Assembly (NCBI RefSeq): GCF_964275005.1
Contig: NC_092698.1
Span: forward strand, 38,664,639-38,728,638
Origin: Diadema setosum
Lineage: Eukaryota
Direction of reading: 5' to 3'
Length of the DNA: 64,000 nt
A model generated the notes under the pieces. It had not been told where the DNA came from, searched no databases, and saw only the letters and a program-made list of their open reading frames with translations. Positions 3,607 through 45,115 of the stretch are shown in pieces; position 1 is the first letter of the stretch; each line of letters starts with the position of its first letter. A program made the position numbers and the translations under genes.

Positions 3607-4131
3607 TTATAGTCATAGATGAGGAGGCATTGCCAGAGACAATTATGACCCAAAAAGACATATGAAGACACTTATTTGTGCATCACAGGTACACGATAAG
3701 CCATATCATGCCCCTTTATCAAATTCTACGTACGAAATCATAAAAAAATAAAAAGTAAAACTATGAGAAAAGATAACAAATGAAGGGAAGAAGTCGTGTG
3801 AGTAAAACAAAGGGTAAGGCTTGAACGGTGAAGATTTGTCATTACCTTTAGATTTTTGATTGCAATTTACATTACAACGGGGAGTTCATGTAACGTGTCA
3901 CTGCTGATTTATGACAATAGGTCAATATCTTTTATCGTTATTTCAGACACTATAGCCTATATACACTATGGTCTTGAAGGTAATTCTGCTTTGTAGTTTC
4001 TGATGCAAAAGACAATAAGGAAACTAACTTAGGCACTTGAAATAGTGGCTTTAATTCCAGTAAAGACATGTAGATGTACTTCGCTTTAATCGGCGAGGTG
4101 CATTCGAGGATAGTTGTGTGACTAATCAAAA

Positions 4132-4247
4132 TTAATTGCAGGTAGGTTCATTCTTGTATTCCTCGAACGCCTGCTGCCATGCTGTCATCTCCGTCTTCCA
4201 GTCATCATAACTTTCCCGCCATTCCTTCTCAGTGTCACTTATGTCGT
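4132..4247 (-). CDS. Cholinesterase-like terminal exon encoding a T-peptide / WAT tetramerisation tail (DDISDTEKEWRESYDDWKTEMTAWQQAFEEYKNEPTCN*)
   Basis: ttccag acceptor; three Trp at 7-residue spacing plus a Cys 3 residues from the C-terminus, the hallmark of the cholinesterase T peptide; TAA stop at 4134-4132. Confidence 0.7.
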
Positions 4248-4976
4248 CTGGAAAGAGAGGGAGAGAGAATGAAGAATTGATGTGATTGTCAAAATTAGCG
4301 CGCTTTCTTTTTATAGCTCACACTCGCATCCTGATTTGTCAACCCGTGCGCCAACTAATGACAAAACTAAAAAATGTTTTGGAGTTGCTTTTCTGTCGAT
4401 ACATTTTTTTTATGCATCTCATATTCTTAATGAATTCTGTGATTGATGACATCTATACCCTATTTCATTAAAAAACAAAGATGGCACATTCTGACTCTTT
4501 ACCTTAGGAGACGATGTCGATGTAGAAGAACAAATCAAAAAGGCGGAGACGAATTACATTATTCCAATTATTGGTCTGTTTCGAACATGAATCTATGTTA
4601 GAACTCGATCATTAGCCTTTCTTATACCATCTGTGGGATTACCGTCTGATTGAAGAATAAAAACAGAAGTCCAGTATCGAGAATCTACATGCTGCACTGC
4701 TCACCAAACTTTATACGTTTATACAAAACGAGAATTTATTGTAACGTGCAAAGGGGAGTCATCTACACTTAGGTATAGGGTTAATTGTTTCATGATATCA
4801 GATGGTGATGGTTTCTGGACATTGGTTCTTCCTAATTTTCGTAAACAATTATGGAACATACACACAGACATACAGACACACACAGCATACAACCGTGTTT
4901 CTATACCTGAGATTCTCGAATGTAACCTGCAAAGCTAACGTATAGTATAACGAAGTTATCATGGTATCAAAAATAC

Positions 4977-5158
4977 CTGTAAAAGCCACGAGGGATGGGA
5001 AGTACTGGTTCCAGAAATGGCACTGTCTGGCTCTAATAGCCCTCCCTGTGGGCAATCCTATAGCTATCTCCTTGTACGCGAGTTCAGGGATCGTGTACTC
5101 TGGCCAGGTGTACTGTCCTTCCCACAGGTCTGAATCCATGCTCGGCTTACTGGGGTTT
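4977..5158 (-). CDS. Cholinesterase-like exon 9 (NPSKP...RARQCHFWNQYFPSLVAFTG)
   Basis: tcgtag acceptor; R-A-x-x-C-x-FW-N-x-F-P-x-L block matches the AChE C-terminal catalytic-domain end (RAQTCAFWNRFLPKLLSAT); ACAG|GTATTT donor. Confidence 0.65.
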
Positions 5159-5260
5159 CTACGATACATATAATAGTTGCAATCCATTAATGCATTAAGT
5201 TCTTGTTGTTTAAGTGCCTTCCTCACACTGTCACATGCAAAATTAAATCAATGTTTTTAA

Positions 5261-5643
5261 AGGGTGTGTACAGTTCTGGTCGAGGTGAGGATTTAGCTTT
5301 TAATGTTTTGCGAGATATTCAGAAACCACTCTATGAGATGTCAAAGAGCATGCAGTTCTAAGGGGTATCAAAAGTTTATTCGATGAAAATCGGTTTTGAA
5401 ATGGCTGAGATATCAAAAAACAAGGTGAAACAAAGCGTTCCTAATAAAGTTGTGGCATGTCGCCTTTTATTATTAGCACTTTTTTGGATATCTCGGCCAT
5501 TTGAAAACCAATTTTCTTCAAATAAACATTGAATTCTTCTTAAAATTACATGCTCTTTCATATTTCATATAAGGCTTTTCATTATCTCACTTAGAAATGT
5601 TCAAAACATGAATCCCCACCTCAACCAGTACTGTACAGTCCCT
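5261..5643. mobile_element. MITE family X, copy a (in a cholinesterase-gene intron), TTAA target-site duplication
   Basis: TIR AGGGTGTGTACAG.../...CTGTACAGTCCCT flanked by TTAA (5257-5260 and 5644-5647); internal palindrome gagatatc-aaaaa / ttttggatatctc; homologous to 27103-27495 and 35246-35626. Confidence 0.7.
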
Positions 5644-5807
5644 TTAAAGGCACTCAGAATTTAACTGATAAGGAATTTTGTCTTCAGTACAATGCAAACA
5701 AGAATATCATCTATCCAAAACTTTTCATCATAGATAAGAGGTATTCGTATTTTCTTTTTAATATTAGCAAACTATTTCATTTTTAGTGAATCAAATGACT
5801 GGCTTAC

Positions 5808-6002
5808 CCGGTCTTGGCAAAGTTGGTCCAGAATTGCATCATTATAACGGAGAGGGCGTTCTCCTCGTCAGTCATGTTGTGTCCTTTGACGTGGTACAGC
5901 TCATCAATGAAAGGGACGCCCCACACAAAAGTCATTTCCTCTCCATGTGCCGCACCAAGCCAAGGAGTGTTGGGAGTAAATCCTTCGTACTCATAGAAGC
6001 TC
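5808..6002 (-). CDS. Cholinesterase-like exon 8 (SFYEYEGF...PWLGAAHGEEMTFVWGVPF...FWTNFAKTG; catalytic His)
   Basis: actag acceptor; HGxE catalytic histidine block and WxNFAKTG block; GG|GTAAGC donor. Confidence 0.75.
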
Positions 6003-6513
6003 CTAGTATCAATCAATTGAAAAAAAAAAAATAGTGACACAGTAACACAAAACCAACTGATACAAATGAACACACTCTGCTAAAGTCAGTTTAGAAAGTC
6101 TCTTACTGAACGTAGGTCACAAAAAGTTGAAATGATTGAATTCACTCAATATGACATTACCCATTAACACCCCCCTCTCAAAAAACAAAAACAAAAACAA
6201 CAACAACCAACAACCCAAAAAACAAAAATTACCCCCCAAAAAAATCATCATTGTCAACTTTGGGATTAGCTTTGAGAACGACAATTAATTTTAGTTCGCA
6301 GATGTGCTGATGTGTTGCCAATAAGTCATTTATGTATTTAGATAAGGCGCATATGACACATATTAAAATTCTATGAAATGATAATAATCATTACATGCAT
6401 TAGTACGTTCTGTAAGATTAAATGCTTTCCATTTCGGGCATGAGGTAAGCCTACTCATGTTTCTGTATAACTATCGCCGAAATGCATTAAAGGAAATAGT
6501 TGCAAGTCCATAC

Positions 6514-6969
6514 TTCGTAGGTACGTGGGTCATAAAGTACTGGTAGACGGGGCCGCCGTGTGATGCATGTCCTGCGTGTTCTCTGATGACGTAATCAGTT
6601 GGACAACCGAACATCACATCTCCAAAGAAATCCACGACCGAGTCGAAGTAATCCGCAGTAATGTTGTCTGCAATACTCCAGTCGGTATACTCCTGGTCTA
6701 CAGAGTCGATTATGATCGCATCCTCCAGACCGTTGTAGAAAGTTAGCTGGTATTGAATCGAAGCAAGGTAGGTAGCCCGGTCGTAAGGGGGCGGTGTTTC
6801 GCTACCCGCGTAGGCAGGAAAAGATCCGTATGGTATTAAAGTCCCCTCGTCCTTGTTGAAGCCCGCAACGATTGGTACATGGGCAAAGTCCCCGTTGCTG
6901 TAGAGGTTTTTTGGTGTATCTTCGAGAAACGTACCGTCCAGAGTCACTCGATACACAGCATCATACACC
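6514..6969 (-). CDS. Cholinesterase-like exon 7 (VDGxFLxDTP ... NKDEGTLIPYG ... catalytic Glu block ... YQYFMTHVPTK)
   Basis: cccag acceptor; LDGTFLEDTP, FNKDEGT (triad Glu), YTDW blocks align with BChE/AChE; GTATGG donor after ACGAA. Confidence 0.7.
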
Positions 6970-7162
6970 TGGGCATTATGATATGATAATATGAAGACAG
7001 GTCCAATTTACAGAGCAAAATTGATCATGGCTGATAATCATTAATATTTAATAATTTTAATGAAACTGTACAGGCAGCATTGTGTGTCGATGTATACATC
7101 ACCTCTCCGTCTATCTCATAACTTAATACTTCACTAGAATCCCGATTGTTCTGGCTGAACTT

Positions 7163-7165
7163 ACA

Positions 7166-7205
<40 letters not shown>
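7163..7205. repeat. (CA)n microsatellite
   Basis: seen directly. Confidence 0.9.
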
Positions 7206-7207
<2 letters not shown>

Positions 7208-7444
7208 TATCAATTTACTTTTGTGAATGGGTGTTGATGTTGTCCAGGGGTTTGGAAATTGAGCCGAATCTGAAAGCTATATAATCTAGAAATTAGCATG
7301 TAATTATTTAAAACTGATTTATGATAATTTATCATAATATTCAAGCCACCTCCTAACATGAATTACGTTGAATACGGAACGTTTCAGTACCCTATCAATG
7401 TCGCTAGTTTAGCTGATTTTCTGACATGTCTGAACATCTTGTAT

Positions 7445-7686
7445 AGGTCGGCCGTTCCACAGTAAAAGGGTCTATCTTGAGAAATGTTACTTCGGAAAAA
7501 ACGGGTTTAAAGTTTGGTGTATTTGTATGTCTGCCTCTTGTGTTTGTAAAGAAAGTGGCTTGTGAGTGTAATGTATTATGAAAATATAAAAAAATGAAAT
7601 ATGAAAAATACACCAAACTTTAAACCCGTTTTTCTCCGAAGTAACATTTTTCAAGATAGACCCTTTTACCGTGGAACGGCCGAGGT
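7445..7686. mobile_element. Foldback (hairpin) MITE-like element in a cholinesterase intron: about 80-bp inverted arms around about 85 bp
   Basis: Arm 7445-7522 is the near-perfect reverse complement of 7608-7686 (ggtcggccgttccac...gtttggtgtat). Confidence 0.7.
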
Positions 7687-7990
7687 GTACTAAGAATGGA
7701 AATTACTGTAATCGCTAGGGAAGGATGACTTTCAATAGGGATGGAGTGTTGTTCCTAATCAAGCCAAAATATTTTAAAGTACTTTTTTTTTTCTTCATGT
7801 GAAGCGATGACATTATCTCGTCATGTTCTATGACAGTGTCATAAGAAAATGTGAAATTTGATACTTTTACATCCTTCTGGTTTTTAGCTACCTTATCCAT
7901 TAAAGTACATTAATACTGTGACATTCTCTTTGGTAGATGAGGGTAATAGTACATCATGTACATGGTGCACCACGTTGCCATGGCAGCCAC

Positions 7991-8160
7991 ACCTCATCAG
8001 CGGCCTTCCTGAGTTCTTCAGCATCCTTCTCTTTGAGACATTCCACCAGAGCCTCAGAACTCGACGTGCTGCACCCCATGGTGACGCCCAGTTCTCTCGA
8101 CTTCTCAAGCTCTCTCTCCGGATCGTTGATGAAAGCCCAGTCAGCCAGGGCTGTCCCACT
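7991..8160 (-). CDS. Cholinesterase-like exon 6 (QSGTALADWAF...ALVECLKEKDAEELRKAADE)
   Basis: ttcag acceptor at 8161-8162; conserved QSG and xCLR/K block; donor either GTGTGG (exon end 7993) or GTGGCT (exon end 7991). Only the latter keeps the frame in the printed sequence. Confidence 0.6.
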
Positions 8161-8643
8161 CTGAATCAGTAAAAGGGACTCAAATATGTCACTGGAATGT
8201 ATCCACAGAAAACATGAACAGAAAACAGCAGATGAACTAGTGAGCAATACGAACAAGAATATCCGTAGCAACTGACATGACCCACATGTAACTCACATCA
8301 TTAAACACCCACCAAACATTGCGAAGATACATCAGCAGGCTAATTGGCTTGTTCTAGTGAATGAAACAATGTGCACGTGCAAATGTTCACATTGGCAAGT
8401 ATACCTTTAAAAGATATCCTGGCTCGAGAGAACACGGCGCTAAAGGAGAGCAGTTTGTCGATTACTATTTCCCAATGCATTGCACTTGATGCCGCCATTT
8501 AGCTTTCTCAATAAGAAAATACTGAAAACTGTCAATGAAATTAAGAAGTCGTGTCATGGTACTTGCAGTCTAATACCGTGGAAGTTCTCAGACTGGCTAA
8601 TTCTCAGACCTATATAACAATGTGTACTTACATGTCATTCTTA

Positions 8644-9030
<387 letters not shown>

Positions 9031-9340
9031 TTAACTGGCAGACTTTATAAAGAGAAAGGAAATAGAAAAATTATATAGAAGGAGATAGGTCACTTAACAA
9101 AATTATGAGACTCAATATTCAAAATGTATGGCCGAATTCAGAAAGATTCAGTAATCTTGCTTTAGAGCCAACAGAAAGTTCCTGCTTTTGGTGCATTTCA
9201 CGGAGTGAAACCATGATTCAAAATATCTGGATATAACTTTAATACTCGTCAGTATGATGCTTAGAGAGCATTATAAATCGCGTCAATTTAGATGAGAACT
9301 GCAGTAGTGACTACAGTTTTATTGAAGTACATGTGCTCTG

Positions 9341-9343
<3 letters not shown>

Positions 9344-9385
<42 letters not shown>

Positions 9386-9398
9386 GTATATATATATA
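9344..9398. repeat. (TA)n microsatellite
   Basis: seen directly. Confidence 0.9.
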
Positions 9399-9678
9399 CC
9401 TTGATTGTAATTAAAAGCACTGTGTACATGTATACAATTGTTTCTGTTTAGTATTACATTCTCATCGAAATCAATAAATATAATCTTCTTTTTGTACTGA
9501 CGATATCTGAGATATTACCACTGAATCCTGCAATATCTTGCCACCCTATTGATTTGCATTCAGTGTAATTATTTAAACAAATGGTTGATACATAAAAGCA
9601 AGGCATTAATGTTATTTTAAAATTCAAATATCAGAAACCTATGTCGTGTATGTTGCTCTGTTACCTGGGTATTATTAC

Positions 9679-9756
9679 CTTCAATGTTAGTATAGACCCA
9701 CTTGAGAGCTGCCACCTGATCCAGCATACCAACATTACCAGGAGCTTCTTCATCAG
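9679..9756 (-). CDS. Cholinesterase-like exon 4 (ADEEAPGNVGMLDQVAALKWVYTNIE)
   Basis: EAPGNxGLxDQ block conserved in cholinesterases; ccag acceptor, GTAATAAT donor; phase 1 in and out. Confidence 0.75.
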
Positions 9757-10172
9757 CTGGTAGAAAATGAGATTGAGAGAAATTATCATTTAAAGAACAG
9801 GTGTAAAAAAATACTGAATGACTGGTTAGCTTTAGTCTGAATTGCTTCATATTACTTGGGAAAATCTCTCCGTTTTTACATTCACTAAATATGTGGATGA
9901 TGAACATCATTTGAACTACTGTTGTCCTTTTTTTTTTTGGAGTGGGGAAATATGCCTTCATTTTGTTCTTATCTTCTTCTTTTTTTCTTTGAGAGACAAC
10001 AATGGCTGTTTCGGATCCTTTGACATGCTGTATGTACATGCTGTATCTGAATCTTTGCCTTCTATATTCCATTTTGAATGCACTGGTCGCACATGACCTA
10101 AACAGTTTTGACCAAAAAGAAAAAAAAAATCATTTTTTTTTTCTTGTTTTACTGAAAGTGATAAGAACTGAC

Positions 10173-10332
10173 CTGTGGTGAAAAAAGAGAAAACGTTCAG
10201 GCGGTAGTTGATAGTTACGATTATGACGTCACCGACAGAGACCAATGGGACGCCGCTGAGTTCCACTGTCATCGCGGTTCCAATGGAGAAACCGCCACCG
10301 TGAATAAAGACCATGACTGCAGCACCGTTAAT
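10173..10332 (-). CDS. Cholinesterase-like exon 3 (INGAAVMVFIHGGGF ... NYRLNVFSFFTTG)
   Basis: Oxyanion-hole motif FIHGGGF; NYRL...TG conserved block; aaag acceptor and GTCAGT donor; ends phase 1. Confidence 0.65.
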
Positions 10333-11062
10333 CTTTATCAGTCAAAACAAAATCGATAATAGTATTTCTTGTGGAATTATTATTCATAGCCCATGGATTA
10401 ACATTTATTACAGACAAATTTGACATTCAATGCTAAGAAAGATCATTGAATTTCCTCTCCATATTATAAACAAGATTATTATGTTTAATATGCCATCAAC
10501 AGAACACATTTGTTCCAATAACTATAGACAAATAAGTGGTTAAAGGGATTATCATTATATATTATTATATTCTATTCTATTAAACTATTATTATTATTAC
10601 TATTAATCTTTAATTATTAATCTTTATCAATCAAAACAACATTGATAATTCATGTCTATAACATTGTATTTCTTGTGGAATTATCAACATTTACCACGGA
10701 CAAAATTATCACTAACGTAATTTCGAAGACGTTAATCTTGAGGGTTGACATTGTATGCTAGAAAAGAATAATGAATTTCCTCTCCATATTGTATAACAAA
10801 ATATCATATTCAATAAGGCCTCAACAGAACATATTTGTCCTACTGTGAACACACAAGTGATTAAAAAAAGGAATCTCTGAGACAAATCCACTGTCTCTAA
10901 ATGAAATCCCGAGTATTCGACGAAGGGGGTGTATATGCTTGTAAAGCTAAGCCCACAGTTTTGCGGTAAAAGGCACCGGCGAAAAGTGCAGGCAACAATA
11001 TTGATCCTACATAATTATCATACAGAGAGGGAAAAAAAATCCTTTTCCTTAATGAATCTTAC

Positions 11063-11248
11063 CTTTGGATTAGGAGCAAACACGTTTAGATACAGACAGT
11101 CTTCTGACATCTTCTCGGGAGGCGGGAAAAAGTCAAATACACCTTGCTGACACACAGCTTCAAATTCCGTAGCGTTCCTTTCTCCTTCCCATGACGTCAT
11201 ATTTGTGGGCGGGGCGAATCTCTCAGGAGGGGCTGCATAAGGCACCCC
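11063..11248 (-). CDS. Cholinesterase-like exon 2 (GVPYAAPPERF ... EDCLYLNVF)
   Basis: tatag acceptor; carboxylesterase type-B signature 2 EDCLYLNV; joins exon 1 as VFLGVPYAAPP (matches the cholinesterase FLGIPYAQPP region); GTAAGA donor. Confidence 0.75.
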
Positions 11249-11829
11249 CTATACATTGGTAGAAATAAAATAATAAATACAACCAAACAAGACTAATTCT
11301 GGGATTTGATAATGTCAACGCTTCCATAGAAGTTCAGACTTACGGTGAAGAGGGTTTTACCGTGGTTCAACCTGACTAGATAAGCTTATTCTTCAACTTT
11401 AATATATCTCAAGCAATTTCACCTCATTGGTCAACCTTTCCGGTATGATTCAATATTTGTGAATATCTTGTAGTGATTGTAACGACTTGCATGAAACATT
11501 TTAATCATCTTGATTATTTACAAACAGAGTAATGGAGAGAGCGTCGCATGGATCACTCGTCTGGAAGATAAGTTTTCTCATTGAGGCATTCCAACACCTT
11601 ACTCAACGTGTACAAGAATATACTAGTGTGTTAATATGGTTAAGAAGTAAGAATGAATACAATTGTACTAGGAAGTAAGGCTGCATACTACTGTACTCAC
11701 TAAGAGTTCAGCATGTATACTGGTGTACAAGAGTTATATAAGAATGTCTTATACTTGTGAACAAAGGAATAAAAATGGTCACCATAGGTTGAAGCCACTT
11801 AAATCGGCTCCCTTTTTTTTTCAGCTTAC

Positions 11830-11991
11830 CAAGAAAACGTCAACATCTTGAGTCTTGTTGATGAACCTGTTTTCACTGAAAGTCACTGTTTTTCCCACCA
11901 GAGTTCCTTCTTTCACCGTAACTCTCGGATTCTCAGCATTCAGTGGCGCGAAAATGGCAAATATTGCCAACAAAGTCCATAATAGTCGCAT
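11830..11991 (-). CDS. Cholinesterase-like gene exon 1 (start codon, signal peptide)
   Basis: ATG at 11991-11989; MRLLWTLLAIFAIFAPLNA signal peptide; ends ...DVDVFL + GTAAGC donor; phase 0. Confidence 0.7.
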
Positions 11992-42643: not shown

Positions 42644-43127
42644 GTGAAGACGCATGCGTAATATTCAGTTAAGCAATCTGCTGTAGCAGCTAAACTTCCT
42701 TGAGAAGCCTTTGCGTTATCTTTTTAAATGATTGTGTCGATAAAAGCAGATTGCGGTTGGAAACTCCATAGAGCATGTAGAATGTTTAGGCAAACTACCG
42801 GTCTGCCCGTTCGTAAGGTGATTTATATCTATATCAAGCATTCCTTTGTTCCTTATACTGTCTCGTAGCCTTTGTAAAATGTACCAACACCGCAAAGCGT
42901 TATGTCTCATACAGTTTGTTCGATTTCTTCGCATTGTGTATTTAGTAAAAAGGAGCAACGAAAGTACATCTAATTATTGGTGGCAGATTTTAGATGTGGT
43001 TGTAACATCAATTGATTTCGATACCCCATCCTAGGTCTTTTGAAAGTTTTGCTTTTGTTCACTCTTCTTCGCCATTGAACTGACATAATGTTTTATTTTT
43101 GTTATTTTTTGTTAATCCCTACCACAG

Positions 43128-44724
43128 ATGTCAATGTGTTATTGATGAAGGAATCCAAGGGAAAGAGCGGCAGCTCAAACCACCGGGTGAATCACAGAAA
43201 CACGATCGCATGGTTCGCATAGAATCTCGAGAAACACAGCAGCCCTGCGATCCTCCGATACCATCGGCTAAAGCCATGGACTCTACACAGCAGGCTCTAA
43301 AGACGGAGGAGCTGGTTTCCCCAACACTCCGAGATGTTGATATGGATCAACTTGCAGATCAGCTGGAATTGTTATCTCCCACGGAAGACACACAGAAATC
43401 ATTTCTTGCACATGCAGAAGAGGCGTGTGCGCTCAAGGAATCACCTGTCGACGTCATGGAGCTTTCGGAGGAGGTTTACTTTGCTGATGAGCCTGAACCT
43501 GCCTACATGGTAGAATCTGTTCAGGAAATTCAGCTAGTTGAAGATGTGATGTCTCCTGTCCTCTGTTTAGCTGAACCAGCTAATAGGTCGTTGGTCTTTT
43601 CATATGAAACCGAAGCTGCATACCTTGAGCCTGTGCAAGAACTTCAGATCTGTGAGGAAGTACAAGAAGTATTATCTCCTGTCCTGGAATCGAGCGTTGA
43701 ACCGTTACCTTTGATGTTAGCAGAAGTTGAGTCTGTCACAGAGCTGAGGAAAGAAGTGGCAGAACCTATGAAATTGGAACAACGCAGGGAGAAAAGGTTA
43801 GAGTTGGCAGAACCTGTGTTGATGAAGAAAAAAAAAGCGTTGGCAGAACCTGTGATGCTGGAGGAAAAATTGGCGTTCGCAGAACCTGTGATGCTGGAAG
43901 AACGAATGGAGACACGGGTAAAGATGGCAGAACCTGTATTAATGGCGAAAAAGTTGGAGTTGGCAGAACCTGTGATGCTGGAAAAGCATATAGAGGAAAA
44001 GTTGGAGTTGGCAGAACCTGTGATGATGGAGGATAAATTTGCGTTCGCAGAACCTGTGATGCTGGAAGAACGAATGGAGACACGGGTAAAGATGGCAGAA
44101 CCTGTAATGATGGCGAAAGAGTTAGACTTGGCAGAACCTGTGATGCTGGAAGAACGAATGGAGACACGAGTAAAAATGGCAGAACCTGTAATGATGATGA
44201 AGCAACATATTGAGGAAAGTTTAGAGTTGGCAGAACCTGTCATGATGGAGGAAAAGTTAGAGTTGGCAGAACCTGTGATGCTGAAGGAGCAATTGGCTTT
44301 CGCAGAACCTGTGATGCTGGAAAAGCATATAGAGGAAAAGTTAGAGTTGGCTGAACCTGTATTTATGGCGAAAAAGTTAGAATTGGCAGAACCTGTGATG
44401 CTGGAAGAACGAATGGAGACACGATTAACGATGGCAGAACCTGTAATGATGGTACAACACATGGATGAAAAAATGGCGTTGGCAGAACCTGTCATGATGG
44501 AGGAAGAGCTGGCGTTGGCAGAACCAGTGATGATGAAGGCACATAGAGAGGAAATATTAGAGTTGGCAGAAGCTCCCGAGTTGAATCAAGTACTTGACGC
44601 TACCTCAGCTTTGGAAGCCGATGACATCCTGCCAAAACAACAACAGCACGCTCCAGCAAAGGAAGATCTCGAAAAGACAGAGGCCTTCGACATAATTACA
44701 AGAATTTTGCAAGTAGGGCATCAG
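43128..44724 (+). CDS. PARP4: PARP4-like giant exon (532 codons): acidic region with two ~36-aa repeats followed by about 19 tandem (L/M/F)AEPVM(L/M) repeats of 11-15 aa
   Basis: ccaccacag acceptor (phase 2), CAG|GTAAGG donor; open frame throughout (ORF 43099-44838); nucleotide repeat unit gcagaacctgtgatgctggaag... with 33/36/45-bp periods. Confidence 0.7.
43750..44580 (+). repeat. Coding tandem-repeat array inside the PARP4-like giant exon
   Basis: About 19 occurrences of gcagaacctgt(g/a)atg(c/a)tg... spaced 33-45 bp apart. Confidence 0.85.
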
Positions 44725-45115
44725 GTAAGGAGCAAGATCAGTTTTAAAAAAATCGATTTCAAAATGCAGAGTATTTGCATCCATTTTAATTCAATAACAT
44801 TGGAACAAACAGAAGCAGAGCTAGAAATTCCTACATGAATTGTATCTTCCTAACTAGAATCAGTTCACGGAATAACCGTCATACTTACTCTCTGTACGAC
44901 CGAAACAATAACAATGTAACCATCTTATTCAGTATCATGGCTCACTCAGTGCAACTCTAGCTCCTGAGCTGTACCATCACGTCTGCTTCGAACAGCAAAT
45001 GCTTTCTAAATATTTCACGACTGCAGAGGTTTTTCATTTACTGCGTATAGATAGTGCACATAATCTTGAATGAAAATAGGAATCCAAACTTGATTATACT
45101 GTACCATTCATGCAG

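Follow-up and report, generated by a model that had tools for sequence, protein, structure and literature searches.

The gene considered here, on the minus strand of a 64,000-nucleotide stretch of DNA (the window), raises two questions: whether an esterase from outside the vertebrates can end in the T peptide (WAT domain) of acetylcholinesterase (AChE) and butyrylcholinesterase (BChE), and whether the enzyme in front of that tail is itself a cholinesterase (ChE). The earlier note on this DNA had answered yes to both and had taken the tail to imply a proline-rich anchoring partner. Its view of the genome as non-vertebrate agrees with the closest relatives of the gene, which are from sea urchins. 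The reading that we consider probable is that of a constitutive T exon on a secreted esterase without the ChE gorge, with assembly driven by the tail as homology would predict.

The esterase gene and its last exon

Ten minus-strand exons spanning 4132..11991 join to a 1821-nt open reading frame for 606 amino acids plus stop, and all introns are GT...AG. The encoded protein is a type-B carboxylesterase ("cholinesterase-like"), in which Pfam finds a COesterase domain at E=2.4e-130 and for which the AlphaFold2 model has a pLDDT of 94.7 and a pTM of 0.91. Exon 1 (11830..11991) opens with the ATG at 11991-11989 and encodes signal-peptide-like residues 1-19 (11991-11935), after which the mature domain begins. 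The N-terminus, MRLLWTLLAIFAIFAPLNA, was judged by eye from its sequence to be hydrophobic and signal-peptide-like; the hydrophobic stretch in exon 1 is LLWTLLAIFAIFA, and Glu20 lies, by alignment, close to where mature Torpedo AChE begins. Exon 2 (11063..11248) holds a shortened omega loop, Cys87...Cys105 (11152-11096), with no equivalent of Trp84, and exon 3 (10173..10332) the oxyanion-hole motif HGGGF, with Gly128 and Gly129 at 10299-10294. Exon 4 (9679..9756) comes from the gene assembly. The FGESAG motif, with Glu209, the nucleophile Ser210 and Ala211 (8916-8908), lies in exon 5 (8836..8954), the second disulfide, Cys265-Cys276, in exon 6 (7993..8160), the triad Glu332 (6848-6846) of NKDEG together with Cys413 in exon 7 (6514..6968), and the triad His462 (5947-5945) of AHGEE in exon 8 (5808..6002).

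Exon 9 (4977..5158), the last of the catalytic domain, contains Cys554 and ends in ...SLVAFT plus a single G (phase 1), followed by the donor GT at 4976-4975. A last intron of 729 nt (4248..4976) separates it from exon 10 (4132..4247), the T exon, which encodes a 38-residue WAT-like peptide and the stop codon TAA at 4134-4132. Asp569 is split across this phase 1 intron, its codon being formed by the G at 4977 and the AC at 4247-4246, and the predicted 4977/4247 junction reads ...TTTTACAG joined to ACGACATAAG. The exon 10 acceptor is preceded by pyrimidines at 20 of 20 positions. The exon and the peptide stand exactly as first quoted, in a clean ten-exon frame with GT-AG introns, and the proposed 4977/4247 junction is the only join from which a clean reading frame arises. 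Two ATTAAA hexamers, possible poly(A) signals by pattern match only, occur on the same strand at 4050..4090, 41 and 76 nt past the stop, and sequence conservation in the 3' flank extends to two of the three Diadema antillarum copies compared.

Alternative endings of the H or R type were sought among all AG-initiated phase-1 frames from exon 9 to 3 kb downstream, and by read-through, with no evidence for either. The read-through ending was rejected, as it is a Cys/Val-rich string from a TG-rich microsatellite and is unconserved among three D. antillarum copies. A Logan contig of 2579 bp without introns, which we take for a transcript assembly, codes for a homologue of 604 aa that runs without a break from catalytic domain to tail. 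By tblastn the esterase gene is single-copy, without tandem copies, within the window. On the reading preferred here, exon 10 is the gene's constitutive last exon, and the intact gene encodes an alpha/beta-hydrolase, secreted and N-glycosylated, that its sequence places in the type-B carboxylesterase/cholinesterase superfamily.

The exon 10 tail and the T peptide

The exon 10 peptide, DDISDTEKEWRESYDDWKTEMTAWQQAFEEYKNEPTCN, is 38 residues long and has tryptophans at tail positions 10, 17 and 24 (Trp578/585/592) and a cysteine at position 37 of 38 (Cys605), which upholds the earlier description of three Trp at seven-residue spacing and a C-terminal Cys. Of the seven cysteines in the protein, six correspond by alignment to the three disulfide pairs of ChEs; Cys605 is left over, unpaired. 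AlphaFold2 models the tail as a single helix, residues 573-600, with block-mean pLDDT of 75-88 over the tail residues. This helix is predicted to be amphipathic: the hydrophobic moment of the tail is 0.38, compared with 0.16 +/- 0.08 for shuffles (p=0.007) and 0.36 for Torpedo. Trp578/585/592 would lie on one face with the other face residues Tyr582, Met589, Phe596 and Tyr599, and Cys605 would follow the helix. The tail has 12 D/E to 4 K/R, a net charge of -8 against -2 in Torpedo, and this strong acidity could disfavour a four-helix bundle.

The Pfam family AChE_tetra (PF08674) matches the tail at E=1.1e-4, scoring 22.3 bits on the tail alone and 16.5 on the whole protein, both below the Pfam gathering cut-off of 25 bits. 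The best solved relative of the protein is full-length Torpedo AChE, and the HMMER alignment to it spans the T peptide: W10, W17, M21, W24, F28, Y31 and C37 are identical, and Torpedo F14 aligns with Tyr. In the Torpedo aromatic set F14/Y20/F28/Y31, three of the four positions are aromatic here (Y14, F28, Y31) and Y20 is replaced by Glu. The same alignment places the exon 9/10 boundary opposite Torpedo ...LNAT|ETIDEAE (T535|E536, the start of the T peptide), so that ...AFT|DD... here corresponds to ...NAT|ET... in Torpedo. Different phyla share the splice site ahead of the C-terminal exon (PMC3045457).

A profile of 29 echinoderm tails (echinoid and holothurian), searched against 177,635 PDB sequences, matched seven AChE/BChE C-termini and one weak, unrelated entry (E=0.019). 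The best match was 1vzj_A, the human WAT peptide (E=9.3e-10, 40.9 bits). The matches are reciprocal, AChE_tetra being found on 29 of the 29 echinoderm tails at E<=0.01 (best 1.7e-9). The three tryptophans are invariant in all 29; aromatic residues fill positions 10, 14, 17, 24 and 28 in every tail (100%) and position 31 in 93%, position 21 is hydrophobic in 97%, Cys37 is conserved in 97%, and the remaining positions are variable. Position 20, a Tyr in the vertebrate motif, has an acidic residue in 66% of family members. By sequence, the exon 10 tail is genuinely homologous to the T peptide (WAT domain) of cholinesterases.

Could the Trp periodicity still be a coincidence, or exon 10 a pseudo-exon that is unused or read in the wrong frame? 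The sub-threshold Pfam score is the only point on that side. In a random 38-mer at the Trp content of this protein, W-x6-W-x6-W has a probability of ~3e-4, and given three Trp in 38 residues the 7,7 spacing has P = 0.003. The frame closes only with exon 10, behind a perfect acceptor, and dozens of echinoderm paralogs, of several classes and several per genome, have the same tail, as does the transcript-like contig. The tail matches the Torpedo T peptide, and the echinoderm profile the human WAT peptide of 1VZJ, and therefore the Trp pattern is not chance. Coincidence or disuse, which the earlier note had named as refuting its reading, is given almost no probability.

The pattern of substitution also bears on this point. 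Compared with three tandem copies of D. antillarum, the T exon has a dN of 0-0.011 and a normal dS of 0.13-0.21, although substitutions are few; exons 1-9 compared with the same copies have a dN of 0.038-0.060 and an omega of 0.22-0.24. Gene conversion was considered for the ~97% T-exon DNA identity among paralogs and rejected. Selection on the tail peptide accounts for this identity better than gene conversion does, because synonymous divergence is normal and nonsynonymous change almost absent, a pattern that speaks against coincidence as well.

The vertebrate T peptide of AChE-T and BChE (PF08674; 1VZJ, [WAT]4-PRAD; 6I2T, the BChE tetramer) is likewise encoded by its own 3' exon of ~40 residues, and has in common with the tail described here Trp 10/17/24, the aromatic or Met residues at 14/21/28/31, Cys 37, and a predicted amphipathic helix. 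The sea urchin tail differs in its length (38 residues rather than 40), in having one residue after the Cys instead of three (Cys at -2 rather than -4 from the end), in Glu for Tyr20, in the absence of His, and in its net charge; it also sits on a catalytic domain without a ChE gorge. The word "canonical" in the earlier note was slightly too strong: the tail is a WAT homologue, but one with Glu for Tyr20, Cys at -2, a net charge of -8 and a Pfam score (22.3 bits) below 25. Another non-vertebrate enzyme with a T-type tail is nematode ACE-1, which reportedly has a T-like C-terminus (in work of Arpagaus, Combes and colleagues) and which, unlike the enzyme here, is a true AChE and retains the choline-binding Trp. 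ACE-1 was absent from the tail-profile matches at E<=1e-3.

The catalytic domain and the echinoderm family

Whether the enzyme is a cholinesterase is a separate question. The catalytic triad is intact, as the earlier note had it: Ser210 (FGESAG), Glu332 (NKDEG) and His462 (AHGEE) match S200, E327 and H440 of Torpedo in the alignment. Were this a genuine AChE or BChE, it would form tetramers on a ColQ/PRiMA-type anchor as at vertebrate synapses, and several observations are in keeping with this: the triad, the oxyanion hole, Glu199 and the three aligned Cys pairs of ChE disulfides are retained; the tail is a WAT homologue; relatives are publicly named "cholinesterase 1" and "acetylcholinesterase-like"; the best 60 solved-structure sequence matches are all AChE/BChE (337-273 bits); and AChE/BChE are the top matches in Foldseek. 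The comparison of folds was nonetheless discarded as a test, since ChE and CES1 are inseparable by Foldseek; human CES1, at rank 16 (E=3.7e-54), is an equally good structural match, with TM-scores against the model of 0.78 (query-normalised) and 0.88 (target-normalised). BLASTP identity is likewise even, at 35-36% to vertebrate carboxylesterase-like proteins and 34-37% to AChE/BChE.

Residues of the active-site gorge speak against a true ChE. The central choline-binding residue of ChEs is W84, and of the 14 aromatic gorge residues listed with it BChE keeps 8 (PMC3045457, Table 1). The omega loop Cys87-Cys105 of the present protein is CQQGVFDFFPPPEKMSEDC; W84 is absent, as this loop, which is 9 residues short of its length in Torpedo and other ChEs, contains no Trp. 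Of the 14 gorge aromatics, W233 alone is identical and 3 positions are aromatic (F114 and Y432 being aromatic substitutes), the substitutions including Y70G, Y121S, Y130L, W279D, F330L, F331I, Y334G and Y442E. The acyl-pocket residues assigned depend on the alignment used, HMMER giving F288->Y and F290->V and MAFFT giving gaps. The His motif is HGEE, where Torpedo AChE and BChE have HGYE. Almost all listed echinoid paralogs likewise have an omega loop without Trp84; in the paralog P0046 a Trp lies three residues before the second Cys, off the W84 column, and in three holothurian paralogs a Trp lies one alignment column from W84.

With no Trp84 and a short omega loop, the enzyme is expected to cleave non-choline carboxyl esters, and choline esters poorly if at all, and on its sequence some activity toward choline esters may persist. 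The ChE gorge would have been lost from this catalytic domain, or would never have been present. Vertebrate CES1 and CES2 have the same fold, 35-36% identity, no Trp84 and probably broad ester substrates; unlike them, the enzyme here has a WAT tail, a separate clade and three ChE-typical Cys pairs. Vertebrate CES proteins have the motif HGDE, which HGEE here resembles, and end in an HXEL ER-retention signal; they are not known to carry a WAT tail.

The gene is a member of an already annotated, multi-copy echinoderm family. Closest to it are "cholinesterase-like" genes arrayed in tandem in D. antillarum, with at least four copies in 53 kb and the same ten-exon layout; identity is 88% to one relative, P0001, and 60-63% to ~20 sea urchin paralogs. 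RefSeq relatives with the same tail are named "cholinesterase-like" in D. antillarum and "cholinesterase 1" in Strongylocentrotus purpuratus and Lytechinus, and Pfam already annotates PF08674 on three Lytechinus members. Further relatives occur in holothurians, asteroids, ophiuroids and crinoids, and public annotation of the family also uses the name "acetylcholinesterase-like". All catalytic residues are kept in the present gene, in contrast to some close paralog models that have lost one: E327K in P0002 and S200G in P0063. P0001 has E199V and G119S, but is a fused two-gene model and so uncertain. Such losses are ill-suited to an essential synaptic enzyme.

A neighbour-joining tree of the catalytic domain (200 bootstraps, few outgroups) groups the echinoderm family in a clade with 75% support, or 84% with one further asteroid paralog. 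AChE and BChE form a separate 100% clade, and the echinoderm clade falls outside both AChE/BChE and the vertebrate carboxylesterases, with weak deep nodes (22-46% bootstrap). A phylogeny had been proposed as a check on the earlier reading; in the tree as drawn, with its weak deep nodes, the gene does not group with the cholinesterases. A hemichordate clade (100%) is drawn beside that of the echinoderms, by a join that is unsupported; the hemichordate relatives seen have no WAT tail and end in HDEL-like or in hydrophobic, possibly GPI-signal-like, sequences.

The prediction of a cholinesterase is therefore not supported, given the absence of W84, 1 of 14 gorge aromatics, HGEE, and a clade drawn outside AChE+BChE, and we regard a genuine AChE or BChE at this locus as quite improbable. 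Because the choline-binding pocket is absent, the enzyme is an ordinary member of the echinoderm "cholinesterase-like" family and no demonstrated cholinesterase.

Assembly through the tail and its wider meaning

In vertebrates the WWW motif stacks on the prolines of the PRAD, and the tail Cys forms inter-subunit and ColQ disulfides (PMC2212707), within a framework of WAT, PRAD, PRiMA and lamellipodin (PMC5943944). By homology, the sea urchin tails would associate through their aromatic face in the secretory pathway, an inter-chain disulfide at Cys605 would give dimers, and four helices around a polyproline-II peptide would give tetramers, which may be tethered. Oligomerization through the tail is what we infer from this analogy, and a ColQ/PRiMA-type proline-rich partner is plausible. 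A dedicated gene for an anchor need not follow from the tail, because BChE tetramers are organised by lamellipodin polyproline peptides, as cited in PMC5943944. Within the 64-kb window, a screen by tblastn with the esterase as query, by ORFs of 130 aa or longer and by Pfam on five of these gave no PRAD-bearing candidate.

It is also conceivable that the tail acts with no dedicated proline-rich partner, through disulfide homodimers or amphiphilic oligomers, in ER quality control or retention, or both. In vertebrates, according to work reported from the Massoulie laboratory, the T peptide serves as an ER quality-control or retention signal by which the secretion of subunits that have not assembled is limited. 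The free Cys605 and the amphipathic helix would suit such a role, and the high negative charge speaks against tight four-helix packing; no partner is known in echinoderms. Tails of asteroid, ophiuroid and crinoid paralogs have a one-residue insertion that breaks the heptad register (W-x6-W-x7-W), and those of asteroids and ophiuroids are without Cys, some ending in the ER-retention-like RDEL or KEEL. In echinoids and holothurians, however, the tryptophans and four further positions on the hydrophobic face vary little or not at all, as expected of a face that contacts a PRAD (PMC2212707), and the exact seven-residue Trp spacing would be needless for simple dimerization. Action of the tail without such a partner thus seems unlikely, and the reading preferred here remains that of tail-driven assembly of a secreted esterase.

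Nothing at this locus amounts to a new kind of system, and a full-text search of the accessible literature found no paper on WAT tails in echinoderm esterases. We suggest only tentatively, leaning rather against it, that WAT-polyproline assembly extends beyond cholinergic enzymes, with an echinoderm radiation of non-cholinergic secreted esterases using a strictly conserved WAT tail. If this is true, a PRAD-type organiser or anchor is still to be discovered in echinoderms, and the T exon either dates back to an ancestor shared by ChEs and the echinoderm clade or was added by exon shuffling, in the echinoderm stem lineage, to a carboxylesterase-like gene. A T exon on a domain outside the AChE/BChE clade is a concrete case of C-termini evolving independently of the catalytic domain, as discussed for these enzymes in PMC3045457.

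There is also a consequence for annotation. Several echinoderm "acetylcholinesterase-like" or "cholinesterase 1" genes per genome have active sites without the choline-binding Trp, and expression studies in which such labels are read as AChE may overestimate the cholinergic machinery; annotated cholinesterase mRNAs have been counted in sea urchin embryos (PMC12467107). The strict conservation of the WAT face, finally, makes these enzymes a testable system for asking whether WAT-polyproline assembly predates vertebrate ColQ and PRiMA, and the same system could show what organises it in a non-chordate deuterostome.

The esterase gene and its final exon

The esterase gene is read from the minus strand (12.0 kb to 4.1 kb) as ten exons, with every intron bounded by GT...AG, and the spliced exons form a single ORF of 606 codons followed by TAA. 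Exon 10 coincides exactly with the interval 4247-4132 flagged in the earlier note and encodes, as proposed there, the peptide DDISDTEKEWRESYDDWKTEMTAWQQAFEEYKNEPTCN, with Trp at positions 10, 17 and 24 and Cys at position 37 of 38. The acceptor AG of this T exon is immediately preceded by 20 pyrimidines in 20 positions, and the last intron is in phase 1, the Asp569 codon being composed of G4977 and AC4247-4246. By tblastn, the window holds a single copy of the gene; a search for other conserved endings, H-type or read-through, found none.

The closest relative of the window protein is a D. antillarum "cholinesterase-like" model (P0001, 88% identity). This NCBI model merges exons of two adjacent members, copies B and C (10001-43289, 33 kb), of the tandem array at D. 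antillarum locus L001 (JBFRCO010000533.1), which packs four or more paralogs, each with a T exon, into 53 kb; the fusion may be the source of the odd E199V and G119S residues of P0001. Compared with copies A, B and C, the window T exon carries 2-3 synonymous changes and 0-1 nonsynonymous ones (dS 0.13-0.21, dN 0-0.011), and exons 1-9 show dS 0.16-0.27, dN 0.038-0.060 and omega 0.22-0.24. Nonsynonymous divergence is thus lower in the tail, albeit on few substitutions, and by these sequence measures the gene as a whole evolves like a functional gene. A 2579 bp Logan contig, read as a transcript assembly because it is intron-less, encodes a 604-residue homologue with catalytic domain and tail in one unbroken ORF, and on that reading the family uses the catalytic-domain/tail junction. 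The expectation of W-x6-W-x6-W in a random 38-mer with the Trp content of the window protein is ~3e-4. Chance spacing of the tail Trp residues, or an exon that goes unused, deserves almost no credence.

About 75 nt of intron directly upstream of the T-exon acceptor (4248-4325) are almost identical in the window and copies A, B and C, and about 60 nt of 3'UTR (about 4070-4131) are matched almost base for base in copies A and B, and not C; remaining intron sequence is 72-88% identical between the window and the L001 copies. A role in splicing or 3'UTR control would be one explanation for these stretches flanking the T exon, and a short conversion tract another. The introns also contain (TG)n/(CA)n and (AT)n microsatellites (7190-7250 and 9340-9400) and MITE-like palindromic elements, one in intron 8 (5256-5648; outer arms 46 nt, 83% complementary, inner arms 98 nt, 78%) and one in intron 6 (7441-7690; arms 71 nt, 86% complementary). 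The first also matches L001 47537-47937, where identity is 89% or 71% depending on the orientation.

Elsewhere in the window, on the plus strand, a non-LTR retrotransposon fragment (81-2151) carries two adjacent long ORFs of 223 and 465 aa, the second a reverse transcriptase (Pfam RVT_1, E=4.5e-39). Also on the plus strand, an acidic ORF of 579 aa (43099-44838) includes tandem 84/168-bp repeats (43839-44452) encoding units such as LELAEPVMLEE(K/R). No Pfam family matched this ORF; it could belong to a repeat protein as a single large exon, or else be a minisatellite that only looks coding.

Homology of the tail to the WAT domain

Among solved structures, the window protein is matched best in sequence by full-length Torpedo AChE (6euc_A, E=1.6e-99), in an alignment that extends across the T peptide and is gap-free in the tail. 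Residues W10, W17, M21, W24, F28, Y31 and C37 of the tail are identical to Torpedo, and Torpedo F14 lies opposite a Tyr. Pfam AChE_tetra matches the window tail with E=1.1e-4 and 22.3 bits, under the 25-bit cut-off, which is the sole formal failure against the T-peptide/WAT family and concerns the window tail taken singly. A tail profile was built from 29 different tails, taken from holothurian and echinoid relatives (A2), all 29 of which match AChE_tetra at E<=0.01. Against 177,635 PDB sequences, the profile recovered seven AChE/BChE C-termini and one weak unrelated match (E=0.019), with the crystallised human WAT peptide at the top (1vzj_A, E=9.3e-10, 40.9 bits).

In the 29-tail alignment, positions 10, 14, 17, 24 and 28 are aromatic in 100% and position 31 in 93%, position 21 is Met, Leu, Ile or Val in 97%, and Cys37 is kept in 97%; intervening positions are free to vary and mostly acidic. 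In the published structure of WAT with PRAD (PMC2212707), the PRAD prolines are touched by one face of the helix, and the conservation seen in the alignment matches the pattern expected of such a face. AlphaFold2, supplied with a family alignment of 73 sequences, gave a mean pLDDT of 94.7 and pTM of 0.91 for the window protein and predicted a single continuous helix (573-600) in the tail, whose hydrophobic moment is 0.38 vs 0.16 +/- 0.08 for shuffles and similar to that of Torpedo (0.36). The window tail belongs to the T-peptide/WAT family; it differs from vertebrate tails in being strongly negative (net -8; Torpedo -2) and in having an acidic residue at Tyr20.

Catalytic domain and aromatic gorge

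As a member of the carboxylesterase/cholinesterase superfamily, the enzyme has a COesterase domain (E=2.4e-130) in which Ser210 of FGESAG, Glu332 of NKDEG and His462 of AHGEE align with Torpedo S200, E327 and H440. The oxyanion hole (G128, G129, A211) and Glu209 are present, six of the Cys fall in register with the three ChE disulfide pairs, with Cys605 extra, and the protein has a hydrophobic N-terminus and five N-glycosylation sequons. The gene product is an esterase of secretory type whose catalytic apparatus is intact and which carries a conserved amphipathic helix, homologous to WAT, and one unpaired Cys.

The earlier note had also predicted a cholinesterase, a claim that fails on two defining points, the aromatic gorge and W84. 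The first two Cys of the window protein bound an omega loop, CQQGVFDFFPPPEKMSEDC, with 17 residues between the cysteines vs 26 in Torpedo and no Trp, so that the central choline-binding residue W84 is missing under any alignment. From a list of 14 aromatic gorge residues (PMC3045457), W233 alone is identical (1/14), with aromatic substitutes at F114 and Y432; the gorge changes are Y70G, Y121S, Y130L, W279D, F330L, F331I, Y334G and Y442E, and the acyl-pocket assignment varies with the alignment used. By BLASTP the protein is about as close to AChE/BChE (34-37% identity) as to carboxylesterase-like proteins of vertebrates (35-36%), and human CES1 is essentially level with the ChEs in the Foldseek ranking. 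Judged by its residues, the window enzyme is not built like a cholinesterase, nor is it a demonstrated one, and on the gorge residues the predicted substrate is some carboxyl ester that is not a choline ester. With W84 and the gorge absent, the full reading of the earlier note, a genuine cholinesterase forming tetramers on a ColQ/PRiMA-type anchor, appears quite improbable. The best overall explanation, which we consider probable, is a secreted type-B esterase with a WAT-homologous tail and no ChE gorge.

A short Trp-free omega loop is common to almost all sea-urchin paralogs examined; in one, P0046, a Trp lies three residues before the second omega-loop Cys, off the W84 column. Three holothurian paralogs, P0061 (Apostichopus japonicus) and P0051 and P0062 (Logan assemblies with holothurian-like tails), have an omega-loop Trp ("FKFWFKPEMDEDC") one alignment column from Torpedo W84, and some family members of this kind might retain choline binding. 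In some other paralog models a catalytic or oxyanion residue is lost and the WAT tail kept (for example E327K in P0002, S200G in P0063, G119S and E199V in P0001). Such losses suggest non-catalytic family members, with the reservation that P0001 is the fused model.

Distribution and possible function of the tail

In a neighbour-joining tree (532 trimmed columns, tail excluded, 200 bootstraps), the tail-bearing echinoderm family forms a clade with 75% support, or 84% with one further asteroid paralog. Its nearest neighbour is drawn as a hemichordate clade (100%), a join without bootstrap support, and the echinoderm family stands apart from the joint clade of Torpedo AChE and BChE (100%) and from vertebrate CES (100%), with deeper order unresolved. 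The W-x6-W-x6-W pattern and the Cys occur in nearly all echinoid and holothurian paralogs. In asteroids, ophiuroids and crinoids, the paralogs (P0042-P0093) have a one-residue tail insertion (W-x6-W-x7-W, "WKYTDMxxW") that breaks the heptad register; the Cys is absent from asteroid and ophiuroid tails, and several finish with RDEL, KEEL or QELN, similar to ER-retention signals added to a WAT-like helix. Hemichordate relatives are without a WAT tail and have HDEL-like or hydrophobic, possibly GPI-signal-like, ends.

An exhaustive HMMER search of 1.84 billion cluster representatives with the tail profile yielded only 52 proteins at E<=1e-3, which were sorted by sequence, and by public names where some had them, into echinoderm esterases, T exons of vertebrate AChE/BChE, short fragments without identification, and a pair of long repeat proteins, P0124 and P0134, whose match comes from tandem repeats and which were rejected as WAT tails. 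All four publicly named longer non-vertebrate matches are echinoderm (Patiria, Apostichopus, Anneissia).

By analogy with the vertebrate system (PMC2212707, PMC5943944), subunits would associate via the aromatic face of the tail, Cys605 could form an inter-chain disulfide, and four tail helices might wind round a polyproline-II peptide. The organiser of BChE tetramers is lamellipodin-derived polyproline peptides, with no dedicated anchoring subunit (PMC5943944), and hence the window enzyme would not strictly need an anchor gene of its own. That the tail acts with no proline-rich partner is unlikely in our estimate.

RefSeq already lists orthologues and paralogs with "cholinesterase-like" names, and Pfam had previously marked PF08674 on three Lytechinus members; in the literature searched, we found no paper describing the family-wide WAT tail with a gorge-less catalytic domain. 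It is a useful correction that the window gene is not a demonstrated cholinesterase, and the evolutionary angle of a WAT tail on a gorge-less esterase is modestly interesting. WAT-polyproline assembly may, as a tentative possibility, serve a non-cholinergic esterase radiation, with an as yet undiscovered echinoderm organiser.
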